Shown here: positions 1-24,893 of the stretch, in pieces | Layout: each line of letters opens with the position of its first letter | Numbering within the stretch: position 1 is the stretch's first letter | Source: a virus | Lineage: Duplodnaviria > Caudoviricetes | Strand: one strand, 5' to 3' | IMG/VR virus record: IMGVR_UViG_3300043391_000745 | Span: 1-34,255 of that record | Length of the DNA: 34,255 bases | Position numbers and translations under genes: made by a program | Notes under the pieces: generated by a model | The model's input: the letters and a program-made list of their open reading frames with translations, nothing else | The model's database searches: none | Told to the model about the DNA's origin: nothing

Positions 1-2
1 CT

Positions 3-197
3 TCTTGTGGCTATAATAAATATCCAGATGTTCTTGAATTTCATCATAGAGATGCAGAAACAAAAGAATTTGATTGGAAAAAACTTCGTCAGATGTCTTG
101 GGATAAGGTAACAAAAGAATTAGATAAGTGCGATATGCTCTGCGCTAACTGCCATAGAGAGCGACATTACGAAATATTTTCTCTAAATAAAAAATAG
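3..197 (+). CDS. HNH endonuclease, 5'-truncated by window edge
   Basis: Manual translation SCGYNKYPDVLEFHHRD...ELDKCDMLCANCHRERH ending at TAG 195-197; HH...LCxNCH signature of HNH nucleases. Confidence 0.85.
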   Translation, partial: SCGYNKYPDVLEFHHRDAETKEFDWKKLRQMSWDKVTKELDKCDMLCANCHRERHYEIFSLNKK

Positions 198-213
198 AAT
201 GTATTCTATCTAT

Positions 214-330
214 GTGAGAAATATTTTTGAGAAATTCGGCGTGGAGTTTTTTATTTTATGTTTAATGTTAATGATTTGTTGGAGCGGGGCACAAGAATTG
301 GTCAAAATAGTAATTACACATTTAAAATAA
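214..330 (+). CDS. small membrane protein (38 aa; alternative ATG at 199)
   Basis: Manual ORF MRNIFEKFGVEFFILCLMLMICWSGAQELVKIVITHLK with one hydrophobic stretch. Confidence 0.45.
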   Translation: MRNIFEKFGVEFFILCLMLMICWSGAQELVKIVITHLK

Positions 331-400
331 TTTTTTTTTAAAATCATATTTTTGTAAATAATAATTGAAATATCTAAAGTTCTAATGTAAAATACTATAG

Positions 401-562
401 ATGAAAAATGAAAATAGAATCAGCAAGATTTTAGAGAAAAGAGTTCTTAAAGACGAAGATCCTAAAACTATAGCTCAAATAGATAAGTTTTTAAATAATC
501 TAGAAGTCGTTTTCGTTAAATGGGCTAAAGCTCATCCCAATTGGAAAGAATCAGAAGAATAA
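401..562 (+). CDS. hypothetical protein (53 aa)
   Basis: Manual ORF MKNENRISKILEKRVLKDEDPK...HPNWKESEE; ATGTAA late-type motif at 385-390. Confidence 0.6.
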   Translation: MKNENRISKILEKRVLKDEDPKTIAQIDKFLNNLEVVFVKWAKAHPNWKESEE

Positions 563-571
563 TTAATTACT

Positions 572-646
572 GTAACTGGTTTAGTATCAAGTAGTTACAA
601 AAGATCCCTCCCTGCCGTCGTAAGTCGTTGACCATCAATGAGATTT
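572..646. repeat. 75-bp double-palindrome element, copy 1
   Basis: GTAACTGGTTTA-GTA-TCAAGTAGTTAC (572-598), 21-bp core AAAAGATCCCTCCCTGCCGTC, GTAAGTCGTTGA-CCA-TCAATGAGATTT (620-646). Confidence 0.9.
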
Positions 647-661
647 AACTAAAGATTTTTC

Positions 662-689
662 TTGTGAAAAAGCAAAGGTATGGTATATT
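662..689 (+). promoter_or_regulatory. sigma70-type early promoter, likely leaderless transcript
   Basis: TTGTGA-16 bp-(TGG)TATATT, ATG 6 nt downstream at 696. Confidence 0.7.
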
Positions 690-695
690 TAACCT

Positions 696-962
696 ATGAA
701 CAAAATCAAAAACGCAGTTATATACTTAACCTCATATCTGAAACACTTCGTCCTTTTCCTTTTTGGGCAAAGGTATTTAATCGAATACAAACCTTACGGC
801 AAGGATGATGTTTATACTTACATCATCAGCAAGCCTTCGTCCCACACGATTAGCAAGGCTGGCAACAAACTCTTTACGAGTTTTTGCTTCTCTGGTCGTA
901 TGGATTCTGGCGTGAAGCAATTCCGCTATGATAGAATTACTGGCGGTCTCTCACCAGTATAA
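696..962 (+). CDS. hypothetical early protein
   Basis: 88-aa ORF directly behind the promoter and followed by hairpins. Confidence 0.7.
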   Translation: MNKIKNAVIYLTSYLKHFVLFLFGQRYLIEYKPYGKDDVYTYIISKPSSHTISKAGNKLFTSFCFSGRMDSGVKQFRYDRITGGLSPV

Positions 963-1014
963 CAACAGAGAGATTAGAGGGTTTATTATTCTGTTCCCTC
1001 TATTCTTCATATAG

Positions 1015-1047
1015 AAAGGGCGAGACCTAAAAAATCTCGTCTTTTTT
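1015..1047 (+). terminator. intrinsic terminator
   Basis: AAAGGGCGAGA-loop-TCTCGTCTTTTTT hairpin with U-tract. Confidence 0.7.
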
Positions 1048-1048
1048 A

Positions 1049-1076
1049 TTGCACATAAACAAAGTTATGTTAAGAT
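1049..1076 (+). promoter_or_regulatory. sigma70-type promoter with no downstream ORF
   Basis: TTGCAC-16 bp-(TGT)TAAGAT, same geometry as the other early promoters. Confidence 0.6.
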
Positions 1077-1083
1077 AGTTTTA

Positions 1084-1210
1084 GTTCTTTTCCGCAAGGT
1101 GTGGAGTGACTAACCCATTAACGCCCTTGAAACCCCAATGCCCAGAGTCTGAGGCAAGTAGATGTGGGTATATATTCTCTTTGATTCTAGAGCAGAGAGA
1201 GCGGAAAGAA
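1084..1210 (+). ncRNA. candidate structured small RNA (~125 nt)
   Basis: Own promoter; 5' TTCTTTTCCGC pairs with 3' GCGGAAAGAA; internal stems ACCCAT/GTGGGT, TGCCCAG/CTGAGGCA, TCTCTTTG/CAGAGAGA; only a 4-codon ATG ORF inside. Confidence 0.5.
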
Positions 1211-1387
1211 TTATTTATTACGCCACTTTTCTCTGTGATAGCAAACCCAACTTAATAAAGCTTTTTCAAAACCAATATCTTGACCAGCTTTTTCGCTTTC
1301 AATCCATTTATGTTTTAATATCTCTTCTCGTTCTTGGATAAATTTTTTGTAAAGAGCAGATGATTCGACCAAGCCAGATACTTTCAT
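1211..1387 (-). CDS. DUF4032-like small protein (58 aa, not in ORF track)
   Basis: Manual translation MKVSGLVESSALYKKFIQEREEILKHKWIESEKAGQDIGFEKALLSWVCYHREKWRNK; motif EILxHKWxxSEKAGxDIGFExAxxxW recognised from memory; GTGTAA 9 nt upstream. Confidence 0.75.
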   Translation of the reverse strand: MKVSGLVESSALYKKFIQEREEILKHKWIESEKAGQDIGFEKALLSWVCYHREKWRNK

Positions 1388-1426
1388 TAATTTATATTAC
1401 ACTATATTGCTTTTAAATCAAGATTT

Positions 1427-1501
1427 TTATCTCTCTTATAGTCAAAGACTTACAACGCAAGGGCCCCTGCCTTTATAAGTTGTTGATGGTGAATGAGATT
1501 T
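1427..1501. repeat. 75-bp double-palindrome element, copy 2
   Basis: TTATCTCTCTTA-TAG-TCAAAGACTTAC, core AACGCAAGGGCCCCTGCCTTT, ATAAGTTGTTGA-TGG-TGAATGAGATTT. Confidence 0.9.
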
Positions 1502-1506
1502 ATTAG

Positions 1507-1534
1507 TAGACAAAAAGATAATTTCTGATATATT
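1507..1534 (+). promoter_or_regulatory. early promoter, likely leaderless
   Basis: TAGACA-16 bp-(TGA)TATATT, ATG 6 nt downstream at 1541. Confidence 0.7.
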
Positions 1535-1540
1535 TAAGCT

Positions 1541-2377
1541 ATGAAAGTAAACGAAATTATCACTGAAAAATTCATCGAAGCCCTCAACAAAGGAGTCATC
1601 CCTTGGCAGAAGCCTTGGAAAGTTTTTGACCTCTGCAATGGAGTTTCCAAAAAAGGTTATAGGGGCATCAATCAATTCTTACTTCGCATGGTAGCTTCTG
1701 ATGATTTCTTTTTTACATTCAATCAGATTAAAGAACTTGGCGGAAGAATCAAAAAAGGTGCTAAGTCCCATATGGTAGTTTATTACAAACTATTAAAGAA
1801 GAAAGATGATGAGTCGGGTGGCTTTCCTCTTATGAGATTCTATAAAGTTTTTGGTTTGAGTGATATTGAGGGCATGAAGTGGAAACAGCCCGAAGTTAAG
1901 AAGTTGGATTTTTCACCAGTAGAAGAAGCAGAAAAGTTAATCAACAAGTGCGTGATTCAGATTAAGTATGGTGGCAGTCGTGCCTGTTACTATCCAGAAG
2001 ATCATAAGATTGATTTGCCTCCAAAAGAAAATTTCAACAGCGTTGAGGAGTATTACTCCACAGCATTTCATGAGATCGGCCACGCTATGCATAAAAGCAC
2101 AGGCGATAATGTTAAGAATGGTTTTGGTTCTCAGAATTATAGCAAAGAAGAATTGACCGCAGAGATTTTTGCGAGCCTCTGTCTTAACTTCTGCGGAATT
2201 GATTCTGAAAAATGTTTTAACAATTCTGCCAGCTATCTTTCTAGTTGGTTAGAAGTATTAAAAAAAGATACAAACTTTATCATCTCAGCTTCTAGCAAAG
2301 CACAAAAAAGATTTGACGCTTTTATTGATAGAAAAGAAAGCGAAGAGATTCAAGAAGAAGAAGCTGTAACTGCTTAA
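1541..2377 (+). CDS. ardC: ArdC-like antirestriction protein (ssDNA-binding N-domain plus zincin-like metallopeptidase domain)
   Basis: IPWQKPW, YRGIN, TFNQIKELGGRIKKG, ACYYP, YYSTAFHEIGH (HExxH) and YSKEELTAE motifs typical of ArdC. Confidence 0.88.
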   Translation: MKVNEIITEKFIEALNKGVIPWQKPWKVFDLCNGVSKKGYRGINQFLLRMVASDDFFFTFNQIKELGGRIKKGAKSHMVVYYKLLKKKDDESGGFPLMRFYKVFGLSDIEGMKWKQPEVKKLDFSPVEEAEKLINKCVIQIKYGGSRACYYPEDHKIDLPPKENFNSVEEYYSTAFHEIGHAMHKSTGDNVKNGFGSQNYSKEELTAEIFASLCLNFCGIDSEKCFNNSASYLSSWLEVLKKDTNFIISASSKAQKRFDAFIDRKESEEIQEEEAVTA

Positions 2378-2440
2378 GTATTAACTACTTACGCAAGCGG
2401 GGTCCCTGCCTTCGTAAGTCATTGATAGTCAATGAGATTT
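2366..2440. repeat. 75-bp double-palindrome element, copy 3 (overlaps ArdC stop codon)
   Basis: GTAACTGCTTAA-GTA-TTAACTACTTAC, core GCAAGCGGGGTCCCTGCCTTC, GTAAGTCATTGA-TAG-TCAATGAGATTT. Confidence 0.9.
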
Positions 2441-2455
2441 AACTGTAAAAAAAAC

Positions 2456-2483
2456 TTGTCACAAGAAAAAAAAGTGTTAATCT
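2456..2483 (+). promoter_or_regulatory. early promoter, likely leaderless
   Basis: TTGTCA-16 bp-(TGT)TAATCT, ATG 6 nt downstream at 2490. Confidence 0.75.
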
Positions 2484-2489
2484 AATTCT

Positions 2490-3125
2490 ATGTTCAAAAA
2501 CAAAAAACAAGCCGAAGAGATTGTTGGCACACTCTCAAAACCCTCGAAGATGCCTGGATATGCTTATTCAACTCCTGCCAAGCGTTGTCTTATCGGGCAG
2601 AAAATGCGGAATGTTGTAGGAAGCATTTGTGCTTTTTGCTACGCTCTTAAAGGGCGTTATGTTTTCCCCAATGTTCAAAAAGCTATGGAAAAGCGTTTCG
2701 CTTCTCTTACTAACGATTTGTGGGTAGATGCTATGACTTATTTGATTGGCAAGGTTAAGAATCCACATTTCAGGTGGCACGATTCAGGAGACTTGCAAGG
2801 TGTGTGGCATATTGAAAAGATTGTGAAGATTGCAAAGAATCTTCCGCATATTTCCTTTTGGTTGCCCACAAGAGAGTATGCTTTTGTCTCAACCTATATT
2901 GAAAAAGGTGGAGAAGTGCCAAGCAATCTTACCATTCGTTTGTCTGCTCTGATGATGGATGGCCCCGCACCCGTAGGAATTGCACAACGCCTTGGCTTAT
3001 GCGTTAGCGGTGCGAGCAAGTTAGGAAACTTTAACTGCCCAAGCTCTAAACAAGGTAACAAGTGCGGTGATTGTCGCAAGTGTTGGGATAAAAATGAGTT
3101 TGCAATCGACTATAAAAAGCATTAA
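2490..3125 (+). CDS. Gp88-like Cys-rich phage protein
   Basis: LSKPSKMPG, C-x13-CxxCYA, FRWHDSGD, FWLPTRE and C-terminal CPxxxxxxxCGDCRKCW match the phage 'gene product 88' family. Confidence 0.75.
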   Translation: MFKNKKQAEEIVGTLSKPSKMPGYAYSTPAKRCLIGQKMRNVVGSICAFCYALKGRYVFPNVQKAMEKRFASLTNDLWVDAMTYLIGKVKNPHFRWHDSGDLQGVWHIEKIVKIAKNLPHISFWLPTREYAFVSTYIEKGGEVPSNLTIRLSALMMDGPAPVGIAQRLGLCVSGASKLGNFNCPSSKQGNKCGDCRKCWDKNEFAIDYKKH

Positions 3126-3186
3126 GATGTATAGGTGACATTAATATTAATTTGTATAGGCTTATTATTATCATTCTTAATCTAAA

Positions 3187-3339
3187 ATGAAAATTGAAAA
3201 ATTATTAAACGAAAACTTAGAATCTTTTTATCCTTGGAGCGACAACGATAATCCTCCACTCGATACGAATAAAAAAACCTTTGTAGAAAAAGAAAAAGAA
3301 ACTCTAGAAGATTTTGAGGGTTGGCGAGCTTGTATGTAA
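3187..3339 (+). CDS. hypothetical protein (50 aa)
   Basis: Manual ORF MKIEKLLNENLESFYPWSDND...EDFEGWRACM, ending 13 bp before repeat copy 4. Confidence 0.55.
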   Translation: MKIEKLLNENLESFYPWSDNDNPPLDTNKKTFVEKEKETLEDFEGWRACM

Positions 3340-3352
3340 AAAACTCTCTGTT

Positions 3353-3427
3353 GTAAGTCGTTGACCATTAACGATTTACAGCCGCAGGGAGGTTGCCGCT
3401 GTAAGTCGTTGATACTCAGAGACTTAG
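3353..3427. repeat. 75-bp double-palindrome element, copy 4 (core inverted)
   Basis: GTAAGTCGTTGA-CCA-TTAACGATTTAC, core AGCCGCAGGGAGGTTGCCGCT (GCAGGG is the reverse complement of CCCTGC), GTAAGTCGTTGA-TAC-TCAGAGACTTAG. Confidence 0.92.
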
Positions 3428-3519
3428 CGACGCTCTATAATTGATTTTATCAAAGCATAAATTAATTGCACAAAAACCAAACCAAAGTATGCCCAAACAC
3501 AAGTTAAAAAGATTTCCAT
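3424..3519 (-). CDS. small single-TM protein (31 aa)
   Basis: MEIFLTCVWAYFGLVFVQLIYALIKSIIERR; GGAG SD upstream; stop codon inside the repeat arm. Confidence 0.55.
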   Translation of the reverse strand: MEIFLTCVWAYFGLVFVQLIYALIKSIIERR

Positions 3520-3521
3520 AA

Positions 3522-3806
3522 TTATTCTCCACAAATTTCTGGATCACCGAAGTAACCATAGTCCTCATCTGTGCCGTGGCCAGCAGAAGCCATAGCAGAA
3601 TCATGGTCACCATCCATCGACTCATCAGGTTCACAAGATGATTCTGAAGAGCCAATGATAAGAGGATCACTTTGCTCAGAGTAAGACCGATGCACAAGAT
3701 TGTTAGCCATATTCTCCTCACGAATATCTTTCAAGATATCACGCACATCTAACACGCCCAGCATATGCTGGCTCATCCAATCTTTGAGAGAGGCTTTGTA
3801 GTCCAT
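3522..3806 (-). CDS. acidic hypothetical protein (likely start MDYKASLK at 3806)
   Basis: GGAGG SD upstream of ATG 3806; C-terminal DESMDGDHDSAMASAGHGTDEDYG. Confidence 0.7.
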   Translation of the reverse strand: MDYKASLKDWMSQHMLGVLDVRDILKDIREENMANNLVHRSYSEQSDPLIIGSSESSCEPDESMDGDHDSAMASAGHGTDEDYGYFGDPEICGE

Positions 3807-3807
3807 A

Positions 3808-3972
3808 TTATTTGACCTCCACAAGAGTTTCGTTGGAGTCATAGACTCCAGACAACGCATCGAGCATCGAGTTAACTACATCATTGGAATTGATGTAGTC
3901 AAAGAACGCATTAGCGTCCACATAGGCTTCCTCGCAGGTTTCCGTCGCTAGGTGTTGGATTTCATTTGTCAT
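3808..3972 (-). CDS. acidic hypothetical protein (54 aa)
   Basis: Manual ORF MTNEIQHLATETCEEAYVDANAFFDYINSND...LVEVK, ATG 6 nt after the -10 box. Confidence 0.7.
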   Translation of the reverse strand: MTNEIQHLATETCEEAYVDANAFFDYINSNDVVNSMLDALSGVYDSNETLVEVK

Positions 3973-3978
3973 AAGTTA

Positions 3979-4006
3979 AATGTATCACAGATTATTTTTA
4001 GATCAA
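3979..4006 (-). promoter_or_regulatory. early promoter, likely leaderless
   Basis: TTGATC-16 bp-(TGA)TACATT on the minus strand. Confidence 0.7.
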
Positions 4007-4122
4007 CATTTATTTTCAAAAAAATTGAATAGAAGAACCTCTAATAGTAAATAGGAAATAGGTTAATAGTAAATAGCACGATCTTTCGCTTTCATTCAGT
4101 TTTATGTTGAAAATCATCATTT

Positions 4123-4197
4123 GTAAGTCATTGATAGTCAAGCACTTAGGCGGGGCGCCTCCCTGCGCTTGCAAGTCGTTGATACTCAGGCTCTTAC
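4123..4197. repeat. 75-bp double-palindrome element, copy 5
   Basis: GTAAGTCATTGA-TAG-TCAAGCACTTAG, core GCGGGGCGCCTCCCTGCGCTT, GCAAGTCGTTGA-TAC-TCAGGCTCTTAC. Confidence 0.92.
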
Positions 4198-4331
4198 AAG
4201 AGGTCTCTGAGATTCAAACAACTCGCAGAAAGATAGTAGAAAAATCTCTCTCGTAAAAAGTTTTTCTGTTCACCATTTTTCACGGCGAGTCTATAAGTTT
4301 TTTTATTTATTTTGAAAAGTATTTTTTTCAT
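4194..4331 (-). CDS. small basic protein (45 aa)
   Basis: MKKILFKINKKTYRLAVKNGEQKNFLRERFFYYLSASCLNLRDLL; TAATG coupling to the upstream gene, GGAG SD, stop inside the repeat arm. Confidence 0.55.
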   Translation of the reverse strand: MKKILFKINKKTYRLAVKNGEQKNFLRERFFYYLSASCLNLRDLL

Positions 4332-4753
4332 TAGTCTCCTTTGTATTGTCCACCGCTATTATATGCTTCAGAGATTCCAGCAGAGATTCTTTTAGTTGAT
4401 TTTACTTTTTCTAAAAGTTCTTCAGTTGATTCAACTTTTTTGATGTCGAAGTATTCTCCAACGCTTGTCAAAAGTTCGTATCCACCCGAAAGAGTCCAAA
4501 GCATTAGATTCTTTAAGAAAGGTAAGTTTGGATAATGGCTATGTTCGGTAGCATCAGCATACCAGATTTCGGTTTCAGTAGTTTCACCACCGATTCTCCA
4601 AAACGATTTGTAGGAAACTTGTATAAAGTCTCCTGCTTTGATGTTAAGTGAACGGAAAGCCTCAAGTGCTTCGTTTTCTTTGCGAGCATTTTCAGCTCTG
4701 CGATTTTGCATTTCTTCTCTGAATTGTTTCATTTGTTCTTTATTTCTTTTCAT
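4331..4753 (-). CDS. hypothetical early protein
   Basis: 140-aa ORF directly behind a TTGACA promoter. Confidence 0.75.
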   Translation of the reverse strand: MKRNKEQMKQFREEMQNRRAENARKENEALEAFRSLNIKAGDFIQVSYKSFWRIGGETTETEIWYADATEHSHYPNLPFLKNLMLWTLSGGYELLTSVGEYFDIKKVESTEELLEKVKSTKRISAGISEAYNSGGQYKGD

Positions 4754-4759
4754 ATCTTT

Positions 4760-4787
4760 AATCTATCACACTTTCCTATTTTGTCAA
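4760..4787 (-). promoter_or_regulatory. early promoter, likely leaderless
   Basis: TTGACA-16 bp-(TGA)TAGATT, ATG 6 nt downstream at 4753. Confidence 0.8.
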
Positions 4788-4792
4788 ACTTT

Positions 4793-4819
4793 TTTTCTCT
4801 TTGATTATTAACGATTTAG
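4793..4819. repeat. lone degenerate 27-bp half-element
   Basis: TTTTCTCTTTGA-TTA-TTAACGATTTAG; abuts the -35 box and contains the stop of 4816..5034. Confidence 0.6.
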
Positions 4820-5034
4820 CGATACCATACAAGAGAATCTGTATCGACATTATACAATCCGCTACGAAGATAAATGGTTGTCCATTTACCTTTATCCTCA
4901 CCTTCGAGGATTTCAGCAGTTGCAGTCATAGTTTTCCAACCGATTGTAGAAGGGAAAACCTTTACGAGTAGTCTTTCGTGACCATATCGAAAAGTATTTT
5001 CATCTGTAGTTAGTTCTTTATTTATTGTTATCAT
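4816..5034 (-). CDS. hypothetical protein, paralog of 5035..5304
   Basis: Shares LVKV...TAxxxxLEGxDKxKxxTIxL with the neighbouring ORF. Confidence 0.7.
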   Translation of the reverse strand: MITINKELTTDENTFRYGHERLLVKVFPSTIGWKTMTATAEILEGEDKGKWTTIYLRSGLYNVDTDSLVWYR

Positions 5035-5304
5035 TTATTTATTTTCCTTTACTAGTTTAGCATTGTTGAGGTTGATTGTTCCAACCTTATCTTTATCTTT
5101 ACCTTCTAGGAAGGTTACAACCGCAGTATTTGCAGAAGTTTTATAAGAAACTTTTACTAAAGTTCCTTCGTATAGGTAAACATCACCGAAGTATGTTGGT
5201 GTGTTGTTAGAGTTAGTTATGATGGATTCAGTAGTATCCATATTTTTACGCATATTTTCACGCATTTGTCTGCGGTGAAAATTCCAATTTATCATTTTAT
5301 TCAT
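5035..5304 (-). CDS. hypothetical protein, paralog of 4816..5034
   Basis: LVKVSYKTSANTAVVTFLEGKDKDKVGTINL; promoter TTGACT-16 bp-(TGG)TAAACT at 5355-5382. Confidence 0.7.
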   Translation of the reverse strand: MNKMINWNFHRRQMRENMRKNMDTTESIITNSNNTPTYFGDVYLYEGTLVKVSYKTSANTAVVTFLEGKDKDKVGTINLNNAKLVKENK

Positions 5305-5378
5305 TTTATTTATTTTCTTTCTTTGTTATTTGTTATCTTTTATCTTATGTATATAGTTTACCACAATTCGTCCAAAAG

Positions 5379-5567
5379 TCAAATTATTTCTTCAATTTGT
5401 TTTTCGTTGATTATCATAGAGTTATGATGAGCAACTTCAACTTTGTGTTCATATTTTGCGAAACTTTCATCGAGTCTCTTTTGGGATTCTTCAACGGCTT
5501 TTTTGAGGTCAGCCGAAGCTTTGTCTAAATTTCCGAGGAGGATTTCTAATTTTGTTTTTCTTTTCAT
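5379..5567 (-). CDS. small coiled-coil-like protein, paralog of 6608..6760
   Basis: MKRKTKLEILLGNLDKASADLKKA...HKVEVAH; promoter TTGCAA-16 bp-(TGA)TAAATT at 5574-5601, ATG 6 nt after. Confidence 0.75.
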   Translation of the reverse strand: MKRKTKLEILLGNLDKASADLKKAVEESQKRLDESFAKYEHKVEVAHHNSMIINEKQIEEII

Positions 5568-5616
5568 ACTCTTAATTTATCACATTTTGGAAATTTTGCA
5601 AGATATTTCTTCATTT

Positions 5617-5691
5617 AAATCTCGTTCACCATCAACGAGTTACGACGCAAGGGACCCTGCCGCCGCAAGTGATTGATATTCAACTACTTAC
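5617..5691. repeat. 75-bp double-palindrome element, copy 6
   Basis: AAATCTCGTTCA-CCA-TCAACGAGTTAC, core GACGCAAGGGACCCTGCCGCC, GCAAGTGATTGA-TAT-TCAACTACTTAC. Confidence 0.92.
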
Positions 5692-6065
5692 AACTTGTAA
5701 AACTTGTGATTGCGTATTGTAGCCACTAGCCTTGCGTCCCTAGCCCACTTAGGAGCAACGCTGATGGCGTGGTAATGGTTTGCACCCTTTACAATGTCTG
5801 GCATCTGTTTATGGATGACTAGATCAGCAAGGTATAGAGCGTTCTTACCTTGTGCTGTTGCCAGTAGCTTCTTCTTGGTGGCTTCACTTACTCCACCATT
5901 CCAGAAGCTGAATTGCTTAGGCGATAGGCATACTTGCCTAGGCGTTTGCTTACGCTCTATAGTGCGTGTCTGTATGACACTAGCAACACCTGCCATACCC
6001 TCAAAGGTCTCGCCCCTAGCTTCGCCTAGTATTGTGAGTGCTACAATGAATAGTTCTGCTGTCAT
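5688..6065 (-). CDS. SleB/CwlJ-like cell wall hydrolase (Hydrolase_2); likely start MTAELF at 6065
   Basis: LTILGEARGE, VASVIQTR, QFSFWN, GANHYH, PKWA and IRNHKFY motifs. Confidence 0.88.
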   Translation of the reverse strand: MTAELFIVALTILGEARGETFEGMAGVASVIQTRTIERKQTPRQVCLSPKQFSFWNGGVSEATKKKLLATAQGKNALYLADLVIHKQMPDIVKGANHYHAISVAPKWARDARLVATIRNHKFYKL

Positions 6066-6069
6066 AGTA

Positions 6070-6489
6070 TTAGTCCCTTCCGTTGCTAACTGCACCACAG
6101 TAATCACTAGGCTTCTCTGCACTGATAGTGCCGAGGCTATACCCTTCGGAGCTACTCGCACCCCATAGGAAGCAGGTCTGACCCATAGCATCCACTATGC
6201 TCTGTGCCTTGGCCTTGGCAAGGTCAAGTAGTCCACCTTTACGCCCCTTGGCGTTGATCTTATTGATCAAGCTATGTAACGCAACCTTGGTGAGAGCGTG
6301 CATCACATCATCTGGATGAGCGTAGAAGTAGAATGCTTTGCCGTTGCCCATATCGTGCAATTTGCCGTTAGTCCCTTCCCAATTATAGATGCTATTGAAG
6401 AAGTGATTGATTTGTTTGATGTTTCCTTCGAGGAGGTAAGCATTGTTTTCGCCGAAGGTTTGGTAACTGATTTTGAGGTTTTGTTTCAT
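6070..6489 (-). CDS. hypothetical early protein
   Basis: 139-aa ORF; TTGACA (6519-6524)-17 bp-CAATAT, ATG 6 nt downstream. Confidence 0.75.
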   Translation of the reverse strand: MKQNLKISYQTFGENNAYLLEGNIKQINHFFNSIYNWEGTNGKLHDMGNGKAFYFYAHPDDVMHALTKVALHSLINKINAKGRKGGLLDLAKAKAQSIVDAMGQTCFLWGASSSEGYSLGTISAEKPSDYCGAVSNGRD

Positions 6490-6527
6490 TGGTCTATATT
6501 GCCTTTCTGTTTATGTTTTGTCAACTA

Positions 6528-6611
6528 TTATTTTTTAGCTGTTGCCATACCATAGATGCCGAGGATAAGGCACCCAATGGTAAGAGCGAAGATGATTTCT
6601 ATTTGATTCAT
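6528..6611 (-). CDS. small single-TM protein (27 aa)
   Basis: MNQIEIIFALTIGCLILGIYGMATAKK; ATGA overlap with the upstream stop. Confidence 0.55.
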   Translation of the reverse strand: MNQIEIIFALTIGCLILGIYGMATAKK

Positions 6612-6760
6612 TTAGTCATCGCTTCCTGATGGATAGCTTCCACCTTCTCTGCGTGAGCTTCAAGGGTAGCGATAGCCCTTGTAGAGGCATCCTTAAGCTC
6701 TTGGCTAGTCTTGTTGAGGTTGGCAATTAGTTGTTCGTACTTACTTAGTTTTTTCTTCAT
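6608..6760 (-). CDS. small coiled-coil-like protein (50 aa), paralog of 5379..5567
   Basis: MKKKLSKYEQLIANLNKTSQELKDASTRAIATLEAHAEKVEAIHQEAMTK; promoter TTGCGA-16 bp-(TGA)TAGATT at 6767-6794. Confidence 0.75.
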   Translation of the reverse strand: MKKKLSKYEQLIANLNKTSQELKDASTRAIATLEAHAEKVEAIHQEAMTK

Positions 6761-6809
6761 AGAGTTAATCTATCACAGAATAACAATATCGCAAGATATT
6801 TCTTCAGTT

Positions 6810-6836
6810 AAATTTCATTGATAGTCAACGACTTAC
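6810..6836. repeat. lone 27-bp half-element at the right edge of the array
   Basis: AAATTTCATTGA-TAG-TCAACGACTTAC followed by a degenerate GC core (CCCGCC at core positions 12-17), no second palindrome. Confidence 0.85.
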
Positions 6837-7201
6837 AAAGAGGCTAACCCGCCCCATGTTATTTTTCTTTCATTTTTAGTCTTAATTCTTTTGTTCGTTT
6901 TTTCTGTGAACGATTTTGCTCTTATCATTTGGCTAATCAAACTGAATGAGAAGCATTTTAGAATTAGGCCACCCCATTTTTGAAAAAAATGAACGACTTC
7001 AATTTTGAAAACACACGAGGGGGTACTAATATCATTCTCCCCTTATTAATTAAAGTATTTATAATATACCTATACCCACCCCCTTTTTTAAAATGTATTA
7101 AAATTCATCTATAAACCATATAAAATGAAAATAAAAAAATCCACGGGGCTATTTTTATATATAACTCTTTTTATATATACTACCAGTGTAATAAATAGTA
7201 T

Positions 7202-8963: not shown

Positions 8964-9689
8964 CTATTTTAACTCTTCAAATTTCTCAATAATATAAGCT
9001 AATATATCATTTCTCATAATATCTTCTCTACCAAATTTAAAAGTACATATCCCTTTGTCATAGCTTTTCTTATCATCAAATAAATTGAATATTTTATCAA
9101 AACCACTATTTTTAATATCAGATTGTCTAATATCTCCAATTAATATTAATTTACTAAACCTACCCATTCTAGTAGTAATAAGTAATAAATCGTGAACGCT
9201 TAAATTTTGAGCTTCATCACAGATAATATAACTAGCATTTATACTAAGCCCACGAAGAAATCCGACTGGTAAACCCTTAACTCTTTCTTGCTTTAATAGC
9301 ATTTCAACTTGCCCTTTTGGTAATAGCTCATGGAGTTTATCCATAAGTGGTTGTAAGTATGGATCAAGTTTACTATGAAGATCGCCTTTAAGAAAACCGA
9401 GATTATGAGTTGAACTTTCTACTGGATTTCTGACATAAAATATTTCGCCAATTTTTTTATGATTTATAGCGTTTAGAGCTGCATATACGCTAAGTAAGCT
9501 TTTAGCTGTTCCTGCTGGACCTTTACAAAATACCATTTTAGTATTCTTATCTTGTAATAATTGAATAAATTTCTTTTGATTATCGGTCCATTGTAATTCA
9601 CGAATATTCAAAAAACCTTCAATTTTATCTCTTTGAGGAACTATTGGGGATTTGTCTTCTTTTTGTTTATTTTTGTTTTTTTTAGACAT
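8964..9689 (-). CDS. phoH: PhoH-family ATPase
   Basis: GPAGTAKS, LGFLKG, FLRGLS, DEAQN, TRMG, GDIRQSD and DIMRN motifs. Confidence 0.93.
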   Translation of the reverse strand: MSKKNKNKQKEDKSPIVPQRDKIEGFLNIRELQWTDNQKKFIQLLQDKNTKMVFCKGPAGTAKSLLSVYAALNAINHKKIGEIFYVRNPVESSTHNLGFLKGDLHSKLDPYLQPLMDKLHELLPKGQVEMLLKQERVKGLPVGFLRGLSINASYIICDEAQNLSVHDLLLITTRMGRFSKLILIGDIRQSDIKNSGFDKIFNLFDDKKSYDKGICTFKFGREDIMRNDILAYIIEKFEELK

Positions 9690-9743: not shown

Positions 9744-10418
9744 ATGATTAAGAGTTTTTTTATTAAAAAGTTAAAGGAACTTAAAAAAGAAGCTGAAAAT
9801 AATATTACAGCTTCTAGCGAAACTTCTGATATTGAATTTAATTTTGATGTCATGGTTGCGGGAGATTTAGCTCAAGCAATTCAATATATAGCTGATCAAT
9901 TGCAATTCGTATCAACTGCCTCTTCCTCAGCTAGTGGTCCTAGTAGTGGCCCTGCTGTAGCTTCTGCTGTTTCTGCTGTTGCTGCCGTTGCTTCTTCCGC
10001 TTCTGCCGCTGCCCCTTCTTCAAGTTCTTCTTCTTCACCTTCTTCAAGTTCTTCTTCAAGTTCTTCTTCAAGCTCTTCTTCAAGCTCTTCTTCAAGCTCT
10101 TCTTCGTCGTCGTCTGTTTCTGCTGCTGTTTCTGCTGCTGTTTCTGCTGCTTCTGCCGCCGCAGCCGCTCCTGCTTCTGTTTCCGCTTCTTCCGCTGCTT
10201 CTTCCGCTGCTTCTTCCGCTGCTTCTTCTGCCTCTTCTGCCGCTTCTTCTGCTGCAGCTGCTGCTTCTTCTGGTGCTGCTTCTTCTTCTGGCGCTTCTCA
10301 TCCAGAAGGGTCAACTACTGGAAGCGGAGGAGGCCAACCTCCAACACCAGGAGCATCGGCTTCATCTTCATCTTCGGCATCTGCCGTAGCTGCTAGTGGA
10401 CCAAGACCACGTCTTTAA
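9744..10418 (+). CDS. Ser/Ala-rich low-complexity protein, paralog A
   Basis: Conserved N-terminal block TSDIEFNFDVMVAGD and HPEGSTTGSGGGQPPTP shared with the next gene; GTGTAA at 9729-9734. Confidence 0.75.
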   Translation: MIKSFFIKKLKELKKEAENNITASSETSDIEFNFDVMVAGDLAQAIQYIADQLQFVSTASSSASGPSSGPAVASAVSAVAAVASSASAAAPSSSSSSSPSSSSSSSSSSSSSSSSSSSSSSSSSVSAAVSAAVSAASAAAAAPASVSASSAASSAASSAASSASSAASSAAAAASSGAASSSGASHPEGSTTGSGGGQPPTPGASASSSSSASAVAASGPRPRL

Positions 10419-10425
10419 AGAATAC

Positions 10426-10935
10426 GTGAATAAAGATAATTTTCTTAAAAGATTAAAAGAACTTAAAAAAACTGAAACTGATATTTCAATTTTCAACCAA
10501 ACTTCTGATATTGAATTTAATTTTGATGTTATGGTTGCTGGGGATATAGCTGAAGCTTTGCAATGGATCGCTAAAGAACTTCAATTTACACCTCCACCAC
10601 CTCCACCACCTCCACCACCTCCACCACCAGGAGCCACACCTCCACCACCGCCACCAGGAGCCACACCTCCACCACCGCCACCAGGAGCCACACCTCCACC
10701 ACCGCCACCACCGCCACCACCTCCGCCACCACAACCAACAACTCCTCCGCCTTCACCTCCACCTCCGCCTCCTCCTCCGCCCCCACCCCCACCACCTAAT
10801 CATCCAGAAGGATCAACTACTGGAAGCGGAGGGGGACAACCTCCAACACCACCCCCACCTTCACCTCCACCTCCGCCTCCCCCTGGACCAAGAATGCAGC
10901 CTCCAAAAGTTAGCTCTTTAAATCCAGGATTTTAA
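10426..10935 (+). CDS. Pro-rich low-complexity protein, paralog B (start GTG 10426 by alignment)
   Basis: MNKDNFLKRLKELKK aligns with MIKSFFIKKLKELKK; same conserved blocks; poly-Pro with GATPPPPPP repeats. Confidence 0.75.
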   Translation: MNKDNFLKRLKELKKTETDISIFNQTSDIEFNFDVMVAGDIAEALQWIAKELQFTPPPPPPPPPPPPPGATPPPPPPGATPPPPPPGATPPPPPPPPPPPPPQPTTPPPSPPPPPPPPPPPPPPNHPEGSTTGSGGGQPPTPPPPSPPPPPPPGPRMQPPKVSSLNPGF

Positions 10936-11435: not shown

Positions 11436-11837
11436 ATGAAACAATATTGTCTTAAATGCGGAAATCCAACGGAATATTCATTAGTAAAACCCCAATTTTG
11501 CAGCAAATGTGGGCAAAATTTTACGCAGAGTATTTCAAATACAGTAAATAAAGTAGAAAATATAAAAATATCAAAAATTCATATAGAAGATGAAGATTTC
11601 GATGGATCAGATTATAATGAAATTACAAAAGTGCCAGACATAGCATCTCTTGAAATAGAAGAAATTAGCTTTCCACAAACAAAAGGCGAGACGCTAGGCT
11701 CTATTATCAATAATTCTAAATCAGAGAATAAAACGCAAACGAAAAGAAAAAAAGGTAAAAAAATATCTAAAAAAGAACAAAGTAAAATATTAGATGAGAT
11801 TCTTTCTGAAGGTAAATCATTAAGATCTAAAAAATGA
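11436..11837 (+). CDS. zinc-ribbon protein
   Basis: N-terminal CLKCG...FCSKCG; TATAAT at 11425-11430. Confidence 0.75.
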   Translation: MKQYCLKCGNPTEYSLVKPQFCSKCGQNFTQSISNTVNKVENIKISKIHIEDEDFDGSDYNEITKVPDIASLEIEEISFPQTKGETLGSIINNSKSENKTQTKRKKGKKISKKEQSKILDEILSEGKSLRSKK

Positions 11838-12508
11838 AAAAAACTAAATTTGAAGAGAGGATCTTAGAAATAGATAGAGAAATATTTAAAAGAAAACATA
11901 AGTGGAGCCTCACATCTTTAACTTGGATGGATTTTAATGATGTAGCTCAAATTCTGAGGATTCATATAAATAATAAATGGAGTCAATATGATCAAGCCCA
12001 ACCACTCGCTCCATGGGTCAACAGAATTATTACTAATCAAATTAGAAATTTAATTAGAAATCATTACGGAAATTTTTCAAGACCATGTTTAAAATGTTCA
12101 GCATTTGAAGGGGACAATTTATGCTCTGTATATGGCAAACAATCTGGTGCTTGTTCCTTATATGCTAAATGGTTAAAATCTAAAAAAAATGCATATGATA
12201 CGAAACTTCCAGTAAGCATAGAAAATCATTTGCAAGAAGTTCACAATAAACCTTCTGAAAATTTGAGCCTAGACCATAGCATTAAAGAGGTTCATCATAA
12301 ATTAAAAGATAAATTAAAACCGAATGAATGGATTTATTACAGTAAGGTATATATAGAAAATCTTTCAGAAACAGAAGCGGCAAAAGCGCTTGGATATAAA
12401 ACAACAGAAAAGAATAGAGACGCAGGATATAAGCAATTAAAAAATTTAAAGAAAAGCATTATAGCAAAAGTTAAAAAAATTATTTATAATGGAGAGATAG
12501 ATATTTAA
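11834..12508 (+). CDS. phage sigma70/ECF-like sigma factor with Cys-rich insertion
   Basis: Region-2-like DFNDVAQ...YD...WVNRIITNQIRNLIR; region-4-like HTH LSETEAAKALGY; CLKC-x7-C-x9-C between them. Confidence 0.65.
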   Translation: MKKTKFEERILEIDREIFKRKHKWSLTSLTWMDFNDVAQILRIHINNKWSQYDQAQPLAPWVNRIITNQIRNLIRNHYGNFSRPCLKCSAFEGDNLCSVYGKQSGACSLYAKWLKSKKNAYDTKLPVSIENHLQEVHNKPSENLSLDHSIKEVHHKLKDKLKPNEWIYYSKVYIENLSETEAAKALGYKTTEKNRDAGYKQLKNLKKSIIAKVKKIIYNGEIDI

Positions 12509-13602
12509 TGAGTGATGAACTCGTAATCTTAACGGAAGAGCAACAATTAAAATTATTAAATGAATGGAATAGTCGTGTAGATAACCCACCTTCATTAAAT
12601 GATTTAGTTAAATTAGCTTTCAACAGAGAGGATCTAGACGGAAGAAGCAAAGAGGGCAAAGCTGTAAAAGCATTTCTTGCATCTAGACAAATTAAACCTA
12701 AAAAGAGCCACGAATACCAAGCTAAAGGATTAATAGAATTAACTCAAGAGCAAAAAGAATATGTTAGCAATAATTGTCATACCATGACTGGATTAGAAAT
12801 GTCGAAAATTTTATTCAAAAATGATAATCTAACTAATCTATCACAAGAAACAAGAAGCGTTCTTGAATATATGAAGAATATACCAAATAATATAAAATTT
12901 AATAATACAGAAAATGAAGAAGTCGCAAATGGACTTTATAAACCACCCCGCAGCGAAGAAAGAGCTATCGCCAAAGTAAATAAATATGTTCTTGATGGAA
13001 TAGATAAGTCTAAGATAAATCACAAACAAAAAAGAGAAGTTAACTCATTGATTGGATACATGAATACTTTTAGATTTTCTCATCAAATTAACCTTTACGA
13101 TAATGAAGCGGATAGAGAATTATTTGAAAGCAGCTTTATAAGATATACTTACGATAAAAGTGACTTAACTCAAGAAGAAGTCGATCAATATATAGTTCTT
13201 TGTACCGAAGTAGTAATATCTTCCAGCATACAACAAACAATCAATGTATTGCAAAATCAAATAGATTTAGCTATTCAAGACGATGGGAAAATACCAATGG
13301 CAATAGTAGAAGCCAGCAATACAGCAAGAAAAGAATATAATGATTGCGTTAATCGTCAACAAAAATTAAATAATGATCTAAAAGTTAAAAGAAGCGACAG
13401 ATTAAGTAAACAAGTTAAAGATACTGCTTCCATAATTAATCTTGTTCAAATGTGGAAAGAAGAAGAGAGTAGAATGAAACTAATTAAAATGGCCGAAATG
13501 AGAAAGAAAAGCTTGGAAAAAGAAATTGATAGATTGTCATCTATGGATGAAATAAAATGTAAAATTTTAGGAATCTCAAAAGATGAGATTTTAAATGGAT
13601 GA
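12508..13602 (+). CDS. hypothetical protein, possible terminase small subunit
   Basis: Helical/coiled-coil protein in the translationally coupled operon upstream of TerL; function is positional inference. Confidence 0.45.
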   Translation: MSDELVILTEEQQLKLLNEWNSRVDNPPSLNDLVKLAFNREDLDGRSKEGKAVKAFLASRQIKPKKSHEYQAKGLIELTQEQKEYVSNNCHTMTGLEMSKILFKNDNLTNLSQETRSVLEYMKNIPNNIKFNNTENEEVANGLYKPPRSEERAIAKVNKYVLDGIDKSKINHKQKREVNSLIGYMNTFRFSHQINLYDNEADRELFESSFIRYTYDKSDLTQEEVDQYIVLCTEVVISSSIQQTINVLQNQIDLAIQDDGKIPMAIVEASNTARKEYNDCVNRQQKLNNDLKVKRSDRLSKQVKDTASIINLVQMWKEEESRMKLIKMAEMRKKSLEKEIDRLSSMDEIKCKILGISKDEILNG

Positions 13603-14531
13603 GCGTAATATGTAAAGTAGACGGCAAGGAGTTTAAAGATGAAAAAAGCCTTCATTTTGCTCTGAGAGGTTATGGTTTAAATAAAGAAAAATACTATCAT
13701 AAATATTTTCCTAAGAAAGACTTGCTAACTGGAGAAACTATTTTATTTAAATCTAAAGATCAGTACTTTAATAGTGATTTTAATGATAAAAATAATATGA
13801 AAAAATGGTTAAAACAACAATCCCCAGAAAAAGCTCAAGAATATTGCAAAGACCTTTTGATTAAAAGAAAAAAAGAAAAAAATATAATATATTCACCAAC
13901 TCAAATTGAACTCAGAACAATAATGAGTCCTTCTATTATTTTTTATAATAAAATTTTTGATGATTATTATGATTTATGTTCTAGCATAGGATTAGAAAAT
14001 AAATTTATTCACCCAAATAATATCACCTCTCAATTTAAAAATAAATTGACGAATAAAGATGCAATATATGTCGACACGAGAGAACAGAGTTGGCTTAAGT
14101 TTGATATTCCTTTTGAAATTAAAACTCTTCCATTCGGAGATTATACATGCAATAAAAACTCCACATGTTATGTTGAAAGAAAAAGTTTAAGTGATTTTAT
14201 CAGTACTTTAAGTGCTGGAAATTTTAATAGATTTAAAAATGAAATAGATAGAGCTCATAAAAATAATTGCAATTTAGTAGTTATTATCGAAGAAAAACTA
14301 TCACATGGTTTAAGTTTTCAATATTTGCCACATATAAGCAAAAAAATCAAAGCCACGCCAGAATATATATTTCATAATGTTAGATCATTAACTCAAGAAT
14401 ATAATAATTTACAATTCTTATTTGTAGACGGCAGAGAAGAAATGAAAAGAGTTATAGAAGCAATATTTGCTAGTGACTTTTTTTATAAAAAAATTGATCT
14501 TCAATTAGCTTATGACTTAAAACTTTTATGA
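13599..14531 (+). CDS. ERCC4/XPF-type nuclease domain protein
   Basis: VDTREQ...LPFGDY...VERKSLSDF matches the ERCC4 GDxn-ERKx3D signature. Confidence 0.8.
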   Translation: MSVICKVDGKEFKDEKSLHFALRGYGLNKEKYYHKYFPKKDLLTGETILFKSKDQYFNSDFNDKNNMKKWLKQQSPEKAQEYCKDLLIKRKKEKNIIYSPTQIELRTIMSPSIIFYNKIFDDYYDLCSSIGLENKFIHPNNITSQFKNKLTNKDAIYVDTREQSWLKFDIPFEIKTLPFGDYTCNKNSTCYVERKSLSDFISTLSAGNFNRFKNEIDRAHKNNCNLVVIIEEKLSHGLSFQYLPHISKKIKATPEYIFHNVRSLTQEYNNLQFLFVDGREEMKRVIEAIFASDFFYKKIDLQLAYDLKLL

Positions 14532-16372
14532 TTGAATGTCCACAAAAATATTTAAAAGAGATAAAAGATGTCAACGCTGAATTAGCGGAACTAAAAGGTT
14601 TCCTTAATGATAAAGAAGCTAAGATTAGTTTAGCAAAATTTTTAAGAGCTAATATAGGATTTACAACCGAATTAATAAGCGGAGTCAAACTTGCACCTTA
14701 TCAAGAACTGCATGTTAAAGCATTCTTTAATCGTAATTTTAATATGTGCGTTTTTGGTCGTGGCTGCGGAAAAAGTTTTATGGCAGCAGTATTTTGTTTT
14801 CTTCAGTGCGTATTCGAACCAAACACAAAGATTCTAATCGCAGGTCCAACTTTTAGAACAGCTCGATTTATTTTTAATAATCTAGAAAAAATAGTCAACA
14901 GTCCAGGGGCAGATTTATTATCTCAGTGTTTTGGAGCAAAAGCGAAAAGAAACGACCAATTTGAATGGCAAATAAATGGTGGGAGCATAGTTGCAATTCC
15001 ATTGAATGGTGAAAAAATTCGAGGATTTCGTGCGAACATCCTTGTTCTTGACGAATTTCTTTTGCTTCCAGAAGAAATTATTAAAAATGTATTAATGCCA
15101 TTCTTAGTTGCTCCACAAAACATTAAAGAAAGAATGGAGATTAGAGAATTTGAAGATAAATTAATTGCAGAAGGAAATATGAAAGAAGAGGATCGAATGG
15201 TTTTTGAAAATACAAGTAAAATGTTAGCTTTTTCATCTGCAAGTTACACCTTCGAAAATCTTTATAAAACTTATAATGAATGGTCAGAGAAAATTGTATC
15301 AAAAGACAAAGGAGAAGCCACGTACTTTGTAAGTCAAATGAGCTATGAAGCTCTTCCAGAAGAAATGATAGATAAAACAATTATCGAAGAAGCCCAAAAT
15401 GGCGGAGCAAGTCATAGTAGTTTCCTTAGAGAGTATTGCGCTAGATTTACAGATGGTAGCGATAGTTATTTTAATGCAAAAAAAATGGAAGATTGTACCT
15501 TAAAAATAGGTGAAAAACCCCATACATTAATGAAAGGCGACAAGGATAAAAAATATATACTTGGTATTGATCCTAATATGAGCGATAGTCCAAATGCAGA
15601 TTATTTCGCCATGGCAATAATAGAAATTGACAATGAAACGCAACACGGAACGCTTGTGCATACTTACGCTGGATTAGGAAATTTAAAGAATCACGTTAAT
15701 TATTTATATTATATATTAACAAATTTTAATATTCATCTAATTACTCTTGATAACGCTGGCGCAGATGTTTTTCTTGCTGCTTGCAATGAATCAGAGATAT
15801 TTAAAAAAGAAAAACTAGAAATAAAAATATTCGAATTTGATAGCGAAGTAGATGGGAACGATTACAATTTAATGGTTAAAAATGCTAGAAGAAAATATAA
15901 TCTAGAAGATAAAAGAATAGCTTTTAATCAAGTTTTCACTAATACTTTTATAAGAAAAGCCAATGAATATCTACAGGCTTGCATAGATTATAAAAAAATA
16001 TGGTTTGCTAGTAAGACTTGTGGCAATGATGATTTTTTTAACGAGCAATTTAATTCCAATATTAATATAGATTTAATTAAATCCCAAGATAAAAAAGAAT
16101 GGTCTATGCTCGATTTTATAGAAAATCAAGACGATTTCATTTATCAGACCAAAAAACAATGCACTCTTATAGAACATTCATCTACTGCTAGAGGTACGCA
16201 ATCTTTTGATTTACCACAACATTTAAAAAGAAGCTCTTCTGCTAATAAAGCTAGAAAAGATAATTATTCAGCACTTTTATTAGCAAATTGGGGTTTAAAG
16301 TGCTATAATGACATGATGAACCAGCCAAAAGAAGATATATCCACTGGATTTCAACCTATAATGATTAAATAA
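14528..16372 (+). CDS. terL: terminase large subunit
   Basis: LAPYQ adenine motif, Walker A GRGCGKS, IRGFRA, Walker B LVLDE, coupling motif FSSA, RNase H-like LGIDP and C-terminal KDNYSAL. Confidence 0.9.
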   Translation: MIECPQKYLKEIKDVNAELAELKGFLNDKEAKISLAKFLRANIGFTTELISGVKLAPYQELHVKAFFNRNFNMCVFGRGCGKSFMAAVFCFLQCVFEPNTKILIAGPTFRTARFIFNNLEKIVNSPGADLLSQCFGAKAKRNDQFEWQINGGSIVAIPLNGEKIRGFRANILVLDEFLLLPEEIIKNVLMPFLVAPQNIKERMEIREFEDKLIAEGNMKEEDRMVFENTSKMLAFSSASYTFENLYKTYNEWSEKIVSKDKGEATYFVSQMSYEALPEEMIDKTIIEEAQNGGASHSSFLREYCARFTDGSDSYFNAKKMEDCTLKIGEKPHTLMKGDKDKKYILGIDPNMSDSPNADYFAMAIIEIDNETQHGTLVHTYAGLGNLKNHVNYLYYILTNFNIHLITLDNAGADVFLAACNESEIFKKEKLEIKIFEFDSEVDGNDYNLMVKNARRKYNLEDKRIAFNQVFTNTFIRKANEYLQACIDYKKIWFASKTCGNDDFFNEQFNSNINIDLIKSQDKKEWSMLDFIENQDDFIYQTKKQCTLIEHSSTARGTQSFDLPQHLKRSSSANKARKDNYSALLLANWGLKCYNDMMNQPKEDISTGFQPIMIK

Positions 16373-16391
16373 GTGTAATTTTAAAGTAAAA

Positions 16392-18269: not shown

Positions 18270-18289
18270 TCTCTCTTGAGGTTTAAGGT

Positions 18290-19573: not shown

Positions 19574-19593
19574 GTATACGTGTAAAATATTAT

Positions 19594-20571: not shown

Positions 20572-20618
20572 TATTAGATTTTAAAAATATATAGTATTAT
20601 AATATAGTGTAATATATT

Positions 20619-20909
20619 ATGAAGACTATGCTATCTAAAATATTTGGCACTAATTGGAGATCTAGCTCATCTGGAATAGCCACAGTTGTAGCAGTTACCA
20701 CAGCAATAGCAATTCATAGCGATCCAACTTTAGTAGCTTTTCTTCCTGATAATGCGGAAGTTTATATTACAGGAATTTCAAAATTAGTTGCAGTTGTCAG
20801 TGGAATTATTTTTGCATTAACAGTAAAAGATTCAGTAGTTACTGGTGGGACAGTAGCTTCTACAGTTGAAGCAGAAGAAAGAGTACATTCACATGGAGAA
20901 AATATATGA
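20619..20909 (+). CDS. putative holin
   Basis: 96 aa, two hydrophobic segments (NWRSS..GIATVVAV; LVAVVSGIIFALTVKD), at the start of the lysis cluster. Confidence 0.5.
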   Translation: MKTMLSKIFGTNWRSSSSGIATVVAVTTAIAIHSDPTLVAFLPDNAEVYITGISKLVAVVSGIIFALTVKDSVVTGGTVASTVEAEERVHSHGENI

Positions 20910-21442: not shown

Positions 21443-21443
21443 A

Positions 21444-22029: not shown

Positions 22030-22036
22030 AAATAAA

Positions 22037-24253: not shown

Positions 24254-24258
24254 TTTTT

Positions 24259-24885: not shown

Positions 24886-24893
24886 TACTATTT

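Follow-up and report, generated by a model that had tools for sequence, protein, structure and literature searches.

The 34,255-nucleotide stretch IMGVR_UViG_3300043391_000745, analyzed at full length and called the window here, is a fragment of the large genome of an uncultured freshwater tailed phage. Family scans of its genes identified terminase, PhoH and tail fibres; its left part is an early island in which ArdC, Gp88 and a cell-wall hydrolase are encoded. The island carries six copies of a 75-bp element, composed of a 27-bp site, a GC-rich core and a second 27-bp site. The two sites of an element are 48 bp apart and the elements follow each other at about 1 kb along the island. As discussed below, the sites resemble those of the nucleoid protein IHF, and we lean towards a role for the element in the control of early phage promoters by a host protein of this type.

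The initial annotation of this DNA had described the six elements as pairs of palindromes around an exactly 21-bp core, and their coordinates and 27+21+27 layout were confirmed. All six window cores are 21 bp long and 57–81% GC, and the CCCTGC reported at core positions 12–17 is present there in five elements and mirrored in copy 4. The palindromes are present but loose, with 6–10 of 12 pairs complementary and 2–8 mismatches to the consensus. Scanning with a matrix built from 86 elements of relatives (threshold 8 bits) found 15 sites of at least 8 bits, compared with 0.095 per 7 kb in shuffles (n = 200). All sites, paired or lone, are confined to 572–6836; none was found in the other 27 kb of the window, in agreement with the earlier observation. 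Three of the 15 sites are lone. Those at 4793 and 6810 had been recognized as half-sites and the third, at 5399, had been overlooked. The place of the lone site at 6810 is occupied by a full element in two relatives (L313 and L374).

Centered on its middle base (W), the 27-mer is the IHF consensus WATCAANNNNTTR on both strands, symmetrised; this consensus is taken from passages of PMC10380432. At most one mismatch to WATCAANNNNTTR is found in 10 of the 12 window sites and in 253 of 280 family sites, the latter rate being partly circular, as a similar pattern had served to seed the matrix, whereas the window figure is not; the background is 0.33% of island 27-mers. T10, A18 and TT24–25 are invariant in 132 elements. 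These columns would correspond to the kink steps and the TTR element of IHF in its 1996 structure. No HU/IHF gene was found in six phage records, three of them complete. Single symmetric sites also occur in bacterial chromosomes: of 121 genomes from the phylum to which G007 belongs, 6 have them (0 with a reversed-pattern control), and they are mostly intergenic in the ten loci examined. None was found in 120 genomes of a control phylum, whose genomes are much smaller. In four of five site-bearing genomes there is one IHF/HU gene each, all with a beta-type E-x-R motif that aligns with E. coli IHF-beta and presumably reads the TTR element. PF00216 is present in 61 of 61 candidate-phylum genomes, with 13 of 29 best matches beta-like and 11 unparsed. 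Judging from sequence, the elements are likely to bind a host IHF-type protein. We infer that the binder may be an IHF-beta-like homodimer of the host, which would explain the mirror symmetry of the site.

Taken as a whole, the element forms an imperfect inverted repeat, with a G-run and a C-run in some cores as in the PeSL stem-loops of T4-type phages; such features could suit an RNA or single-stranded DNA hairpin acting as a terminator or as an attC-like or REP-like structure. Complementarity between the arms, however, does not exceed that obtained when partners are shuffled (z −0.1 to −4), and core changes mostly break pairs (double changes keep 8 and break 11, single changes break 30). Core folding is little better than in shuffles (mean z −0.57), terminator prediction made no call on any element, and Rfam gave no match. 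The hairpin is largely refuted by these tests and very hard to credit; the 27-mer is a double-stranded site. Separate terminator-like hairpins, identified by eye, flank elements in relatives.

The sites keep a fixed distance to promoters. In 90 of 103 pairs in the family, the promoter-side site lies 5–6 bp (49), 15–16 bp (37) or 26 bp (4) before the −35 box; the promoters are predicted leaderless ones, and the pairs include orthologues and are not independent, but cover many different genes. In window 1–7000, the gap is 5 or 15 bp for seven of ten predicted leaderless promoters (Table 1). The rule holds for lone sites as well, and the outer flank of the sites is A/T-rich on the promoter side. 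Most cassettes carry a predicted promoter, as the initial annotation had said, and its second suggestion, a nucleoprotein regulatory scaffold, fits better than its first, an integron- or shufflon-like cassette system, given sites that match IHF and are phased to promoters.

Table 1. Elements, lone sites, predicted promoters and genes of the early island (572–6836).
Feature	Position	Strand	Remarks
Element 1	572..646	.	Site 572–598, GC core 599–619, site 620–646; −35 box 15 bp beyond end
Predicted leaderless sigma-70-type promoter (662–689) and 88-aa open reading frame (ORF; 696–962)	662..962	+	
58-aa ORF	1211..1387	-	5-bp gap between predicted promoter and left site of element 2
Element 2	1427..1501	.	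Predicted promoters on both sides, divergent, each after a 5-bp gap
Promoter (1507–1534) and ArdC anti-restriction gene (1541–2377)	1507..2377	+	Cassette absent in L001
Element 3	2366..2440	.	Overlaps ArdC stop; next −35 box 15 bp beyond end
Gp88-family gene	2490..3125	+	PF17338
50-aa ORF	3187..3339	+	End adjoins element 4
Element 4	3353..3427	.	Flanking genes convergent; core mirrored; promoter found on neither side
Two small ORFs (3522–3860, 3808–3972)	3522..3972	-	Leftward arm
Element 5	4123..4197	.	Several relatives have a 159–160-bp doublet at the same place
140-aa ORF	4331..4753	-	Predicted leaderless promoter 4787–4760
Lone site	4793..4819	.	11 bits; 5 bp from −35 box
Two related small ORFs (4816–5034, 5035–5304)	4816..5304	-	
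Lone site	5399..5425	.	12.8 bits; upstream of promoter-like site 5382–5355
62-aa ORF	5379..5567	-	Predicted promoter 15 bp from element 6
Element 6	5617..5691	.	Overlaps stop of hydrolase gene; doublets or extra cassettes here in relatives
Cell-wall hydrolase (Hydrolase_2; 5688–6065) and 139-aa ORF (6070–6489)	5688..6489	-	
50-aa ORF	6608..6760	-	Predicted leaderless promoter
Lone site	6810..6836	.	24 bits; marks right end of island; −35 box 15 bp away

Palindromes repeated beside early promoters could also be simple operators of a phage-encoded repressor that shuts these promoters, and a site centered 53 bp before the start codon could block upstream promoter contacts. Yet none of the sites overlaps a −35 or −10 box, they match a host consensus, single sites are found in bacterial chromosomes, and sites persist between convergent genes, which together make a phage operator quite improbable.

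Searches of other genomes placed the element in a broad group of phages. The window-type pattern matched 117 stretches in IMG/VR, a number that includes chance matches with AT-rich cores, and a symmetric pattern with a free 15–30-bp spacer found 118 viral loci versus two matches in GTDB. One of these two (L133, on G006:C1) is a 139-kb contig in a Saccharibacteria bin that carries five site pairs 57–58 bp apart and the family terminase (39% identity), and is probably a mis-binned phage; the other looks by eye like an integrative element. The element class is therefore family-wide among large uncultured aquatic phages and nearly absent from bacterial genomes under the pattern searched. Element queries against GenBank phages gave chance-level matches only, and the best terminase matches listed among cultured phages are about 25% identical.

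Site spacing is narrowly bounded across the family and core sequence is not. Among 97 distinct viral pairs, the core is 23 bp in 51, 21 bp in 19 and 21–25 bp in 88; core sequence differs between lineages while the length stays at 21–25 bp. Most cores are GC-rich and a minority AT-rich (L154, L156, L168, L170, L185, L203, L218 and L245 have paired sites with AT-rich cores of 22–23 bp). The exact 21-bp core reported for the window holds for all six of its elements but not for its own group, where 48 of 63 distinct elements have this core, and hence 48-bp site spacing, when the spacer is left free, with a range of 20–24 bp. The matrix scan gave 188 pairs at 48 bp, a spacing that the seed pattern itself required. 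Each letter of CCCTGC is 66–80% conserved in relatives. L044 has 24-bp cores of locus-specific sequence in six of seven elements, while L042, about 89% identical, has 21-bp cores. The distant members G003 and G004 share 51 and 60 proteins, mostly 25–50% identical, with the complete 172-kb relative G001, and their pairs are spaced at 50 bp (7 of 7 and 13 of 13, respectively). Paired sites in G001 and G002 are restricted to an island of about 12 kb, and elements in G001, G002 and G004 to one region of 12–16 kb.

A second element type, a T-tract, a 19-bp GC core and an A-tract, is present in G003 at places orthologous to the palindrome type (G003:C1 positions 16034, 16071, 17476, 18570, 20090, 22865, 144461 and 147236; L253, L254 and L260). 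It is interleaved with the palindromes, and replaces them in a duplicated stretch of the record. A-tracts are able to substitute for IHF bends. One anchored pattern for this variant found nothing in the viral scan, and an overly strict one found none in the loci under study. The central C-versus-G skew was also compared with gene direction across the family (17/11/11 and 24/7/17). A Chi- or KOPS-like polarity was rejected, as the skew does not track gene direction.

Comparison of 22 island maps showed a single gene order and orientation, with local gains and losses only and the genes converging on the island middle. Window 1–6900 is 85.8% identical to G001, compared with 73.7% for the terminase–capsid block (11800–29400); against G002 the difference is small (75.5% versus 73.1%). 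In addition, island pieces at least 99% identical are deep in runs X6 and X7, where their flanks are nearly absent, which suggests exchange of the island between strains.

To describe the gains and losses, 18 islands were compared and 138 inserted segments were collapsed, roughly and with no tree, to 51 indel classes. Both ends lie in elements in 11 classes, one end in 12 and neither in 28, and the both-ends class is enriched (p = 0.002). Single breakpoints are less telling. Elements make up 10% of island DNA and 28% of intergenic DNA, and empty sites coincide with them in 12 of 40 cargo classes, an excess over the former share (p = 0.0003) but not over the latter (p = 0.45). The expectation that breakpoints would fall at the elements is therefore borne out for segments with both ends in them and not for single breakpoints. 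In L001 the ArdC cassette is missing and a single chimeric element stands there instead, and single elements elsewhere read as chimeras of the two flanking elements. Two cargoes are found at different elements in different phages. One is a gene-less unit of 159–162 bp, the doublet, seen at several different elements (L001 8997–9230 in window orientation, L017, L031, L054, L057, L062 and L074). Its spacer of about 85 bp consists of two repeats of about 43 bp with an AAGATC/GATCTT inverted pair, and the spacer motif occurs at 17 viral loci, most of them on contigs already known to carry elements. The window flank left of element 5 groups with this spacer, as a flank remnant left of 4123. The other is a promoter with a nuclease-like gene, which follows different elements in L017 and in L320 and L372. 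In L017 this is a 154-aa gene (4552–5016, in window orientation) with its own promoter and, by eye, a GIY-YIG-like motif; it is also present in L320 and L372.

The integron- or shufflon-like system proposed in the initial annotation thus stands in part. Gain and loss between elements, chimeras and the same cargo at different elements agree with it. Against it, gene order and orientation are essentially fixed, 28 of 51 classes avoid elements, no known recombinase was found in three complete relatives, and no inversions were seen (0 of 22 opposite-strand matches of at least 200 bp overlap any of the 18 islands). Nor are the elements homogenised: element identity is 61% between paralogues within a genome, 76% between orthologues and 60% between non-orthologues across genomes, which indicates that sites are inherited by position. 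Among the joints listed for assembled contigs, which drop rare forms, there was no in-register element-to-element joint. A candidate excised circle, from a joint of 6821 to 609 in X1 and X3, was rejected as mis-mapping, because the inserted letters of the joint match a paralogous element in L007 at 8263. Occasional recombination, and not an integron-style enzyme, probably accounts for the gain and loss of small cassettes at elements.

Of 29 comparisons, 22 place the inferred crossover in the core, mostly at element positions 30–40 (the center is 38), 4 in the left site and 3 in the right; the 29 comparisons represent about nine event classes, with stand-in parents from related genomes. Beyond position 38, the identity that goes with the left flank falls off abruptly. 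Core crossovers, often at places where the parents share little sequence, speak for a dedicated cassette exchange, in which two IHF bends would present the core for cutting and rejoining near its center. The enzyme would come from the host or be one of the phage that has gone unrecognised, and promoter–gene cassettes would move from element to element. The enrichment of both-ends indels, the presence of the gene-less unit and of the promoter with its nuclease-like gene at different elements, and the 24-bp cores of L044, as if a trans factor measured spacing, point the same way. However, several crossovers map to the palindromes, the event classes are few, and selection for keeping both strong half-cores could also center the junctions. 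Core lengths of 20–24 bp at one orthologous site class, the conserved order and the lack of inversions and homogenisation also count against a dedicated system, which we regard as possible but rather unlikely. Its fullest form, an IHF-folded element at which an unrecognised enzyme would swap anti-defence cassettes and the 160-bp empty unit between sites and between co-infecting phages, is equally tentative.

None of the 43 window ORFs scanned matched a recombinase family, as previously stated for the window, and the tyrosine or serine recombinase or HUH nuclease that might accompany the elements was missing from complete relatives as well: PF00589 had no match in six phage records, three of them complete, and PF00239, PF07508 and PF01797 (Y1/HUH) had none in five, including three complete genomes. 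G001 encodes RecA, a PD-(D/E)XK nuclease, endonuclease VII and RuvB among 103 of its 214 ORFs scanned; a further 111 ORFs, partly the same, were scanned against PHROGs. Many conserved ORFs have no family, which leaves room for an enzyme of no known family. The DUF932 protein was considered as a candidate recombinase. Its model (pLDDT 82) had no Foldseek match at E ≤ 0.001; the best VIA score of the model was Z 7.2, and its similarity to the C-terminal domain of T4 MotA (Z 5.9) was weak and non-significant. The DUF932 gene (L123:4942–5799, in G001) is an island gene common to G001, G003 and G004.

Depth of exact-match contigs in run X2 is about 32x inside the island versus 13–18x outside, and similar in X1 (same sample) and X3, while run X4 shows no depth step at the island. 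Since contig depth is not copy number, the step is a weak hint of a terminal repeat. If the island were a long terminal repeat that enters the cell first, IHF bound every kilobase or so might compact it, pull it in, shield it or block the spreading of a silencer. The restriction of elements to one region of 12–16 kb, their spacing, genes that converge on the middle and the conservation of promoterless elements are compatible with such an entry or protection scaffold. On the other hand, island DNA shared between strains inflates depth (X6 and X7) and this role does not require strict promoter phasing, so that we consider the scaffold unlikely.

The reading that we favor, with somewhat better than even confidence, is a twin-bend module in which host IHF serves early promoters and which is also used as an exchange point. 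Bound to both 27-bp sites, the host IHF-type protein would give the DNA an S shape. The site nearer the promoter is in helical step with a predicted early promoter of host type and would help control it. The predicted effect on transcription is more likely to be activation. Exchange would also take place at the elements, much as at the PeSLs of T4. It would rely on occasional RecA-type or microhomology-driven events in the core, which the protein would leave free, and would need no dedicated phage recombinase.

Several observations weigh against this interpretation. The family-wide match to the IHF consensus is partly circular, 115 of the 121 genomes of the putative host phylum are without an exact single site, and PVC/Verrucomicrobiota is no more than a lead to the host. 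Fixed phasing was absent from the distant members G003, G004, L066 and L075 under the pattern used, and elements 4 and 5 have no phased promoter, so that the pair must do more than control promoters. Several promoters have just a lone site, which leaves the need for a second one unexplained. Finally, crossovers concentrate in the least conserved part of the element, the core, which plain homology does not predict.

Among known systems, the element works most like the T4 PeSL, by analogy. PeSLs, as outlined in excerpts of PMC2839356, combine a promoter and a terminating stem-loop, and are intergenic in the variable early region of T4-type phages. Gene loss between two copies leaves one chimeric copy, and the cargo may reappear at another, according to parts of PMC2839356 and PMC4122927. 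Here, too, intergenic repeats lie upstream of sigma-70-type promoters in a variable early region, and gain and loss occur between copies (11 of 51 classes) with chimeric remnants. Unlike PeSLs, the elements have no terminator and no covariation, and consist of IHF-type pairs of fixed geometry that are about 61% identical to each other. IHF sites are known at lambda attP and pL and at Mu Pe. The sites described here share with IHF sites the one-register consensus match, the A/T-rich promoter-side flank and the helical phasing to promoters; they differ in being mirror-symmetric, paired at 48–52 bp around a GC core and present about ten times per genome.

The Hin recombinational enhancer has two Fis sites 47 bp apart that give an S shape, as described in passages of PMC3798978. 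The likeness, two sites for DNA-bending nucleoid proteins at 48 bp here, is in geometry only: the Hin enhancer uses Fis, is single copy and serves a serine invertase, whereas neither an invertase nor inversions were seen here, and the element consensus does not fit the Fis motif GNTYAAAWTTTRANC by eye. In the Type I-F CRISPR leader, the DNA is folded by two IHF bends so that adjacent segments are presented to an enzyme (bioRxiv 10.1101/2023.05.26.542337, in part). The present elements have no repeat array or Cas1–Cas2, and no partner enzyme was identified. In integron attC arrays, shufflons and pdif, repeated sites flank small accessory genes, and Xer sites have a geometry of 11+6+11. Repeated sites around small accessory genes are found here as well. 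The differences are the lack of IntI (PF00589), of attC-like folding, of Rci or another cognate recombinase and of inversions, cassettes with their own promoters, and a geometry of 12+3+12. REP/RAYT systems differ by their Y1 transposase (PF01797), not found in the records searched.

A literature search, in which subscription journals were not covered, found no description of the element, which is real, family-wide and apparently undescribed. As a DNA signature, it marks the early and anti-defence island in a broad family of large, uncultured phages from aquatic habitats. It also suggests where these phages swap anti-defence genes, and how their first promoters could be coupled to a nucleoid protein of the host before the phage has made any protein of its own. 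Two predictions follow: a beta-type IHF homodimer should prefer the symmetric site, and promoter output should cycle with 10-bp changes in spacing. If an enzyme does cause the core-centered crossovers, they would reveal a new recombination system that uses a short site.

Other features were noted in the window and its relatives. The PhoH gene (window 8964–9689), just outside the island, is flipped in orientation in L001 and L017. No tRNA genes were found in the window; in relatives, tRNA genes abut elements (L001 8295–8368, L045 10754–10827, and L261 8348–8418 and 11545–11618). A sigma-70-like gene and an ERCC4 nuclease directly precede terminase (window 11834–16372), a block conserved in G001, G003 and G004. 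Window regions 9744–10935, 22037–24253, 24259–24885 and 29720–34231 contain among them low-complexity repeat ORFs, one of them proline-rich, as well as a BspA-type leucine-rich repeat protein, a phage-lysozyme-like protein (PF16754) and collagen-like tail fibres.

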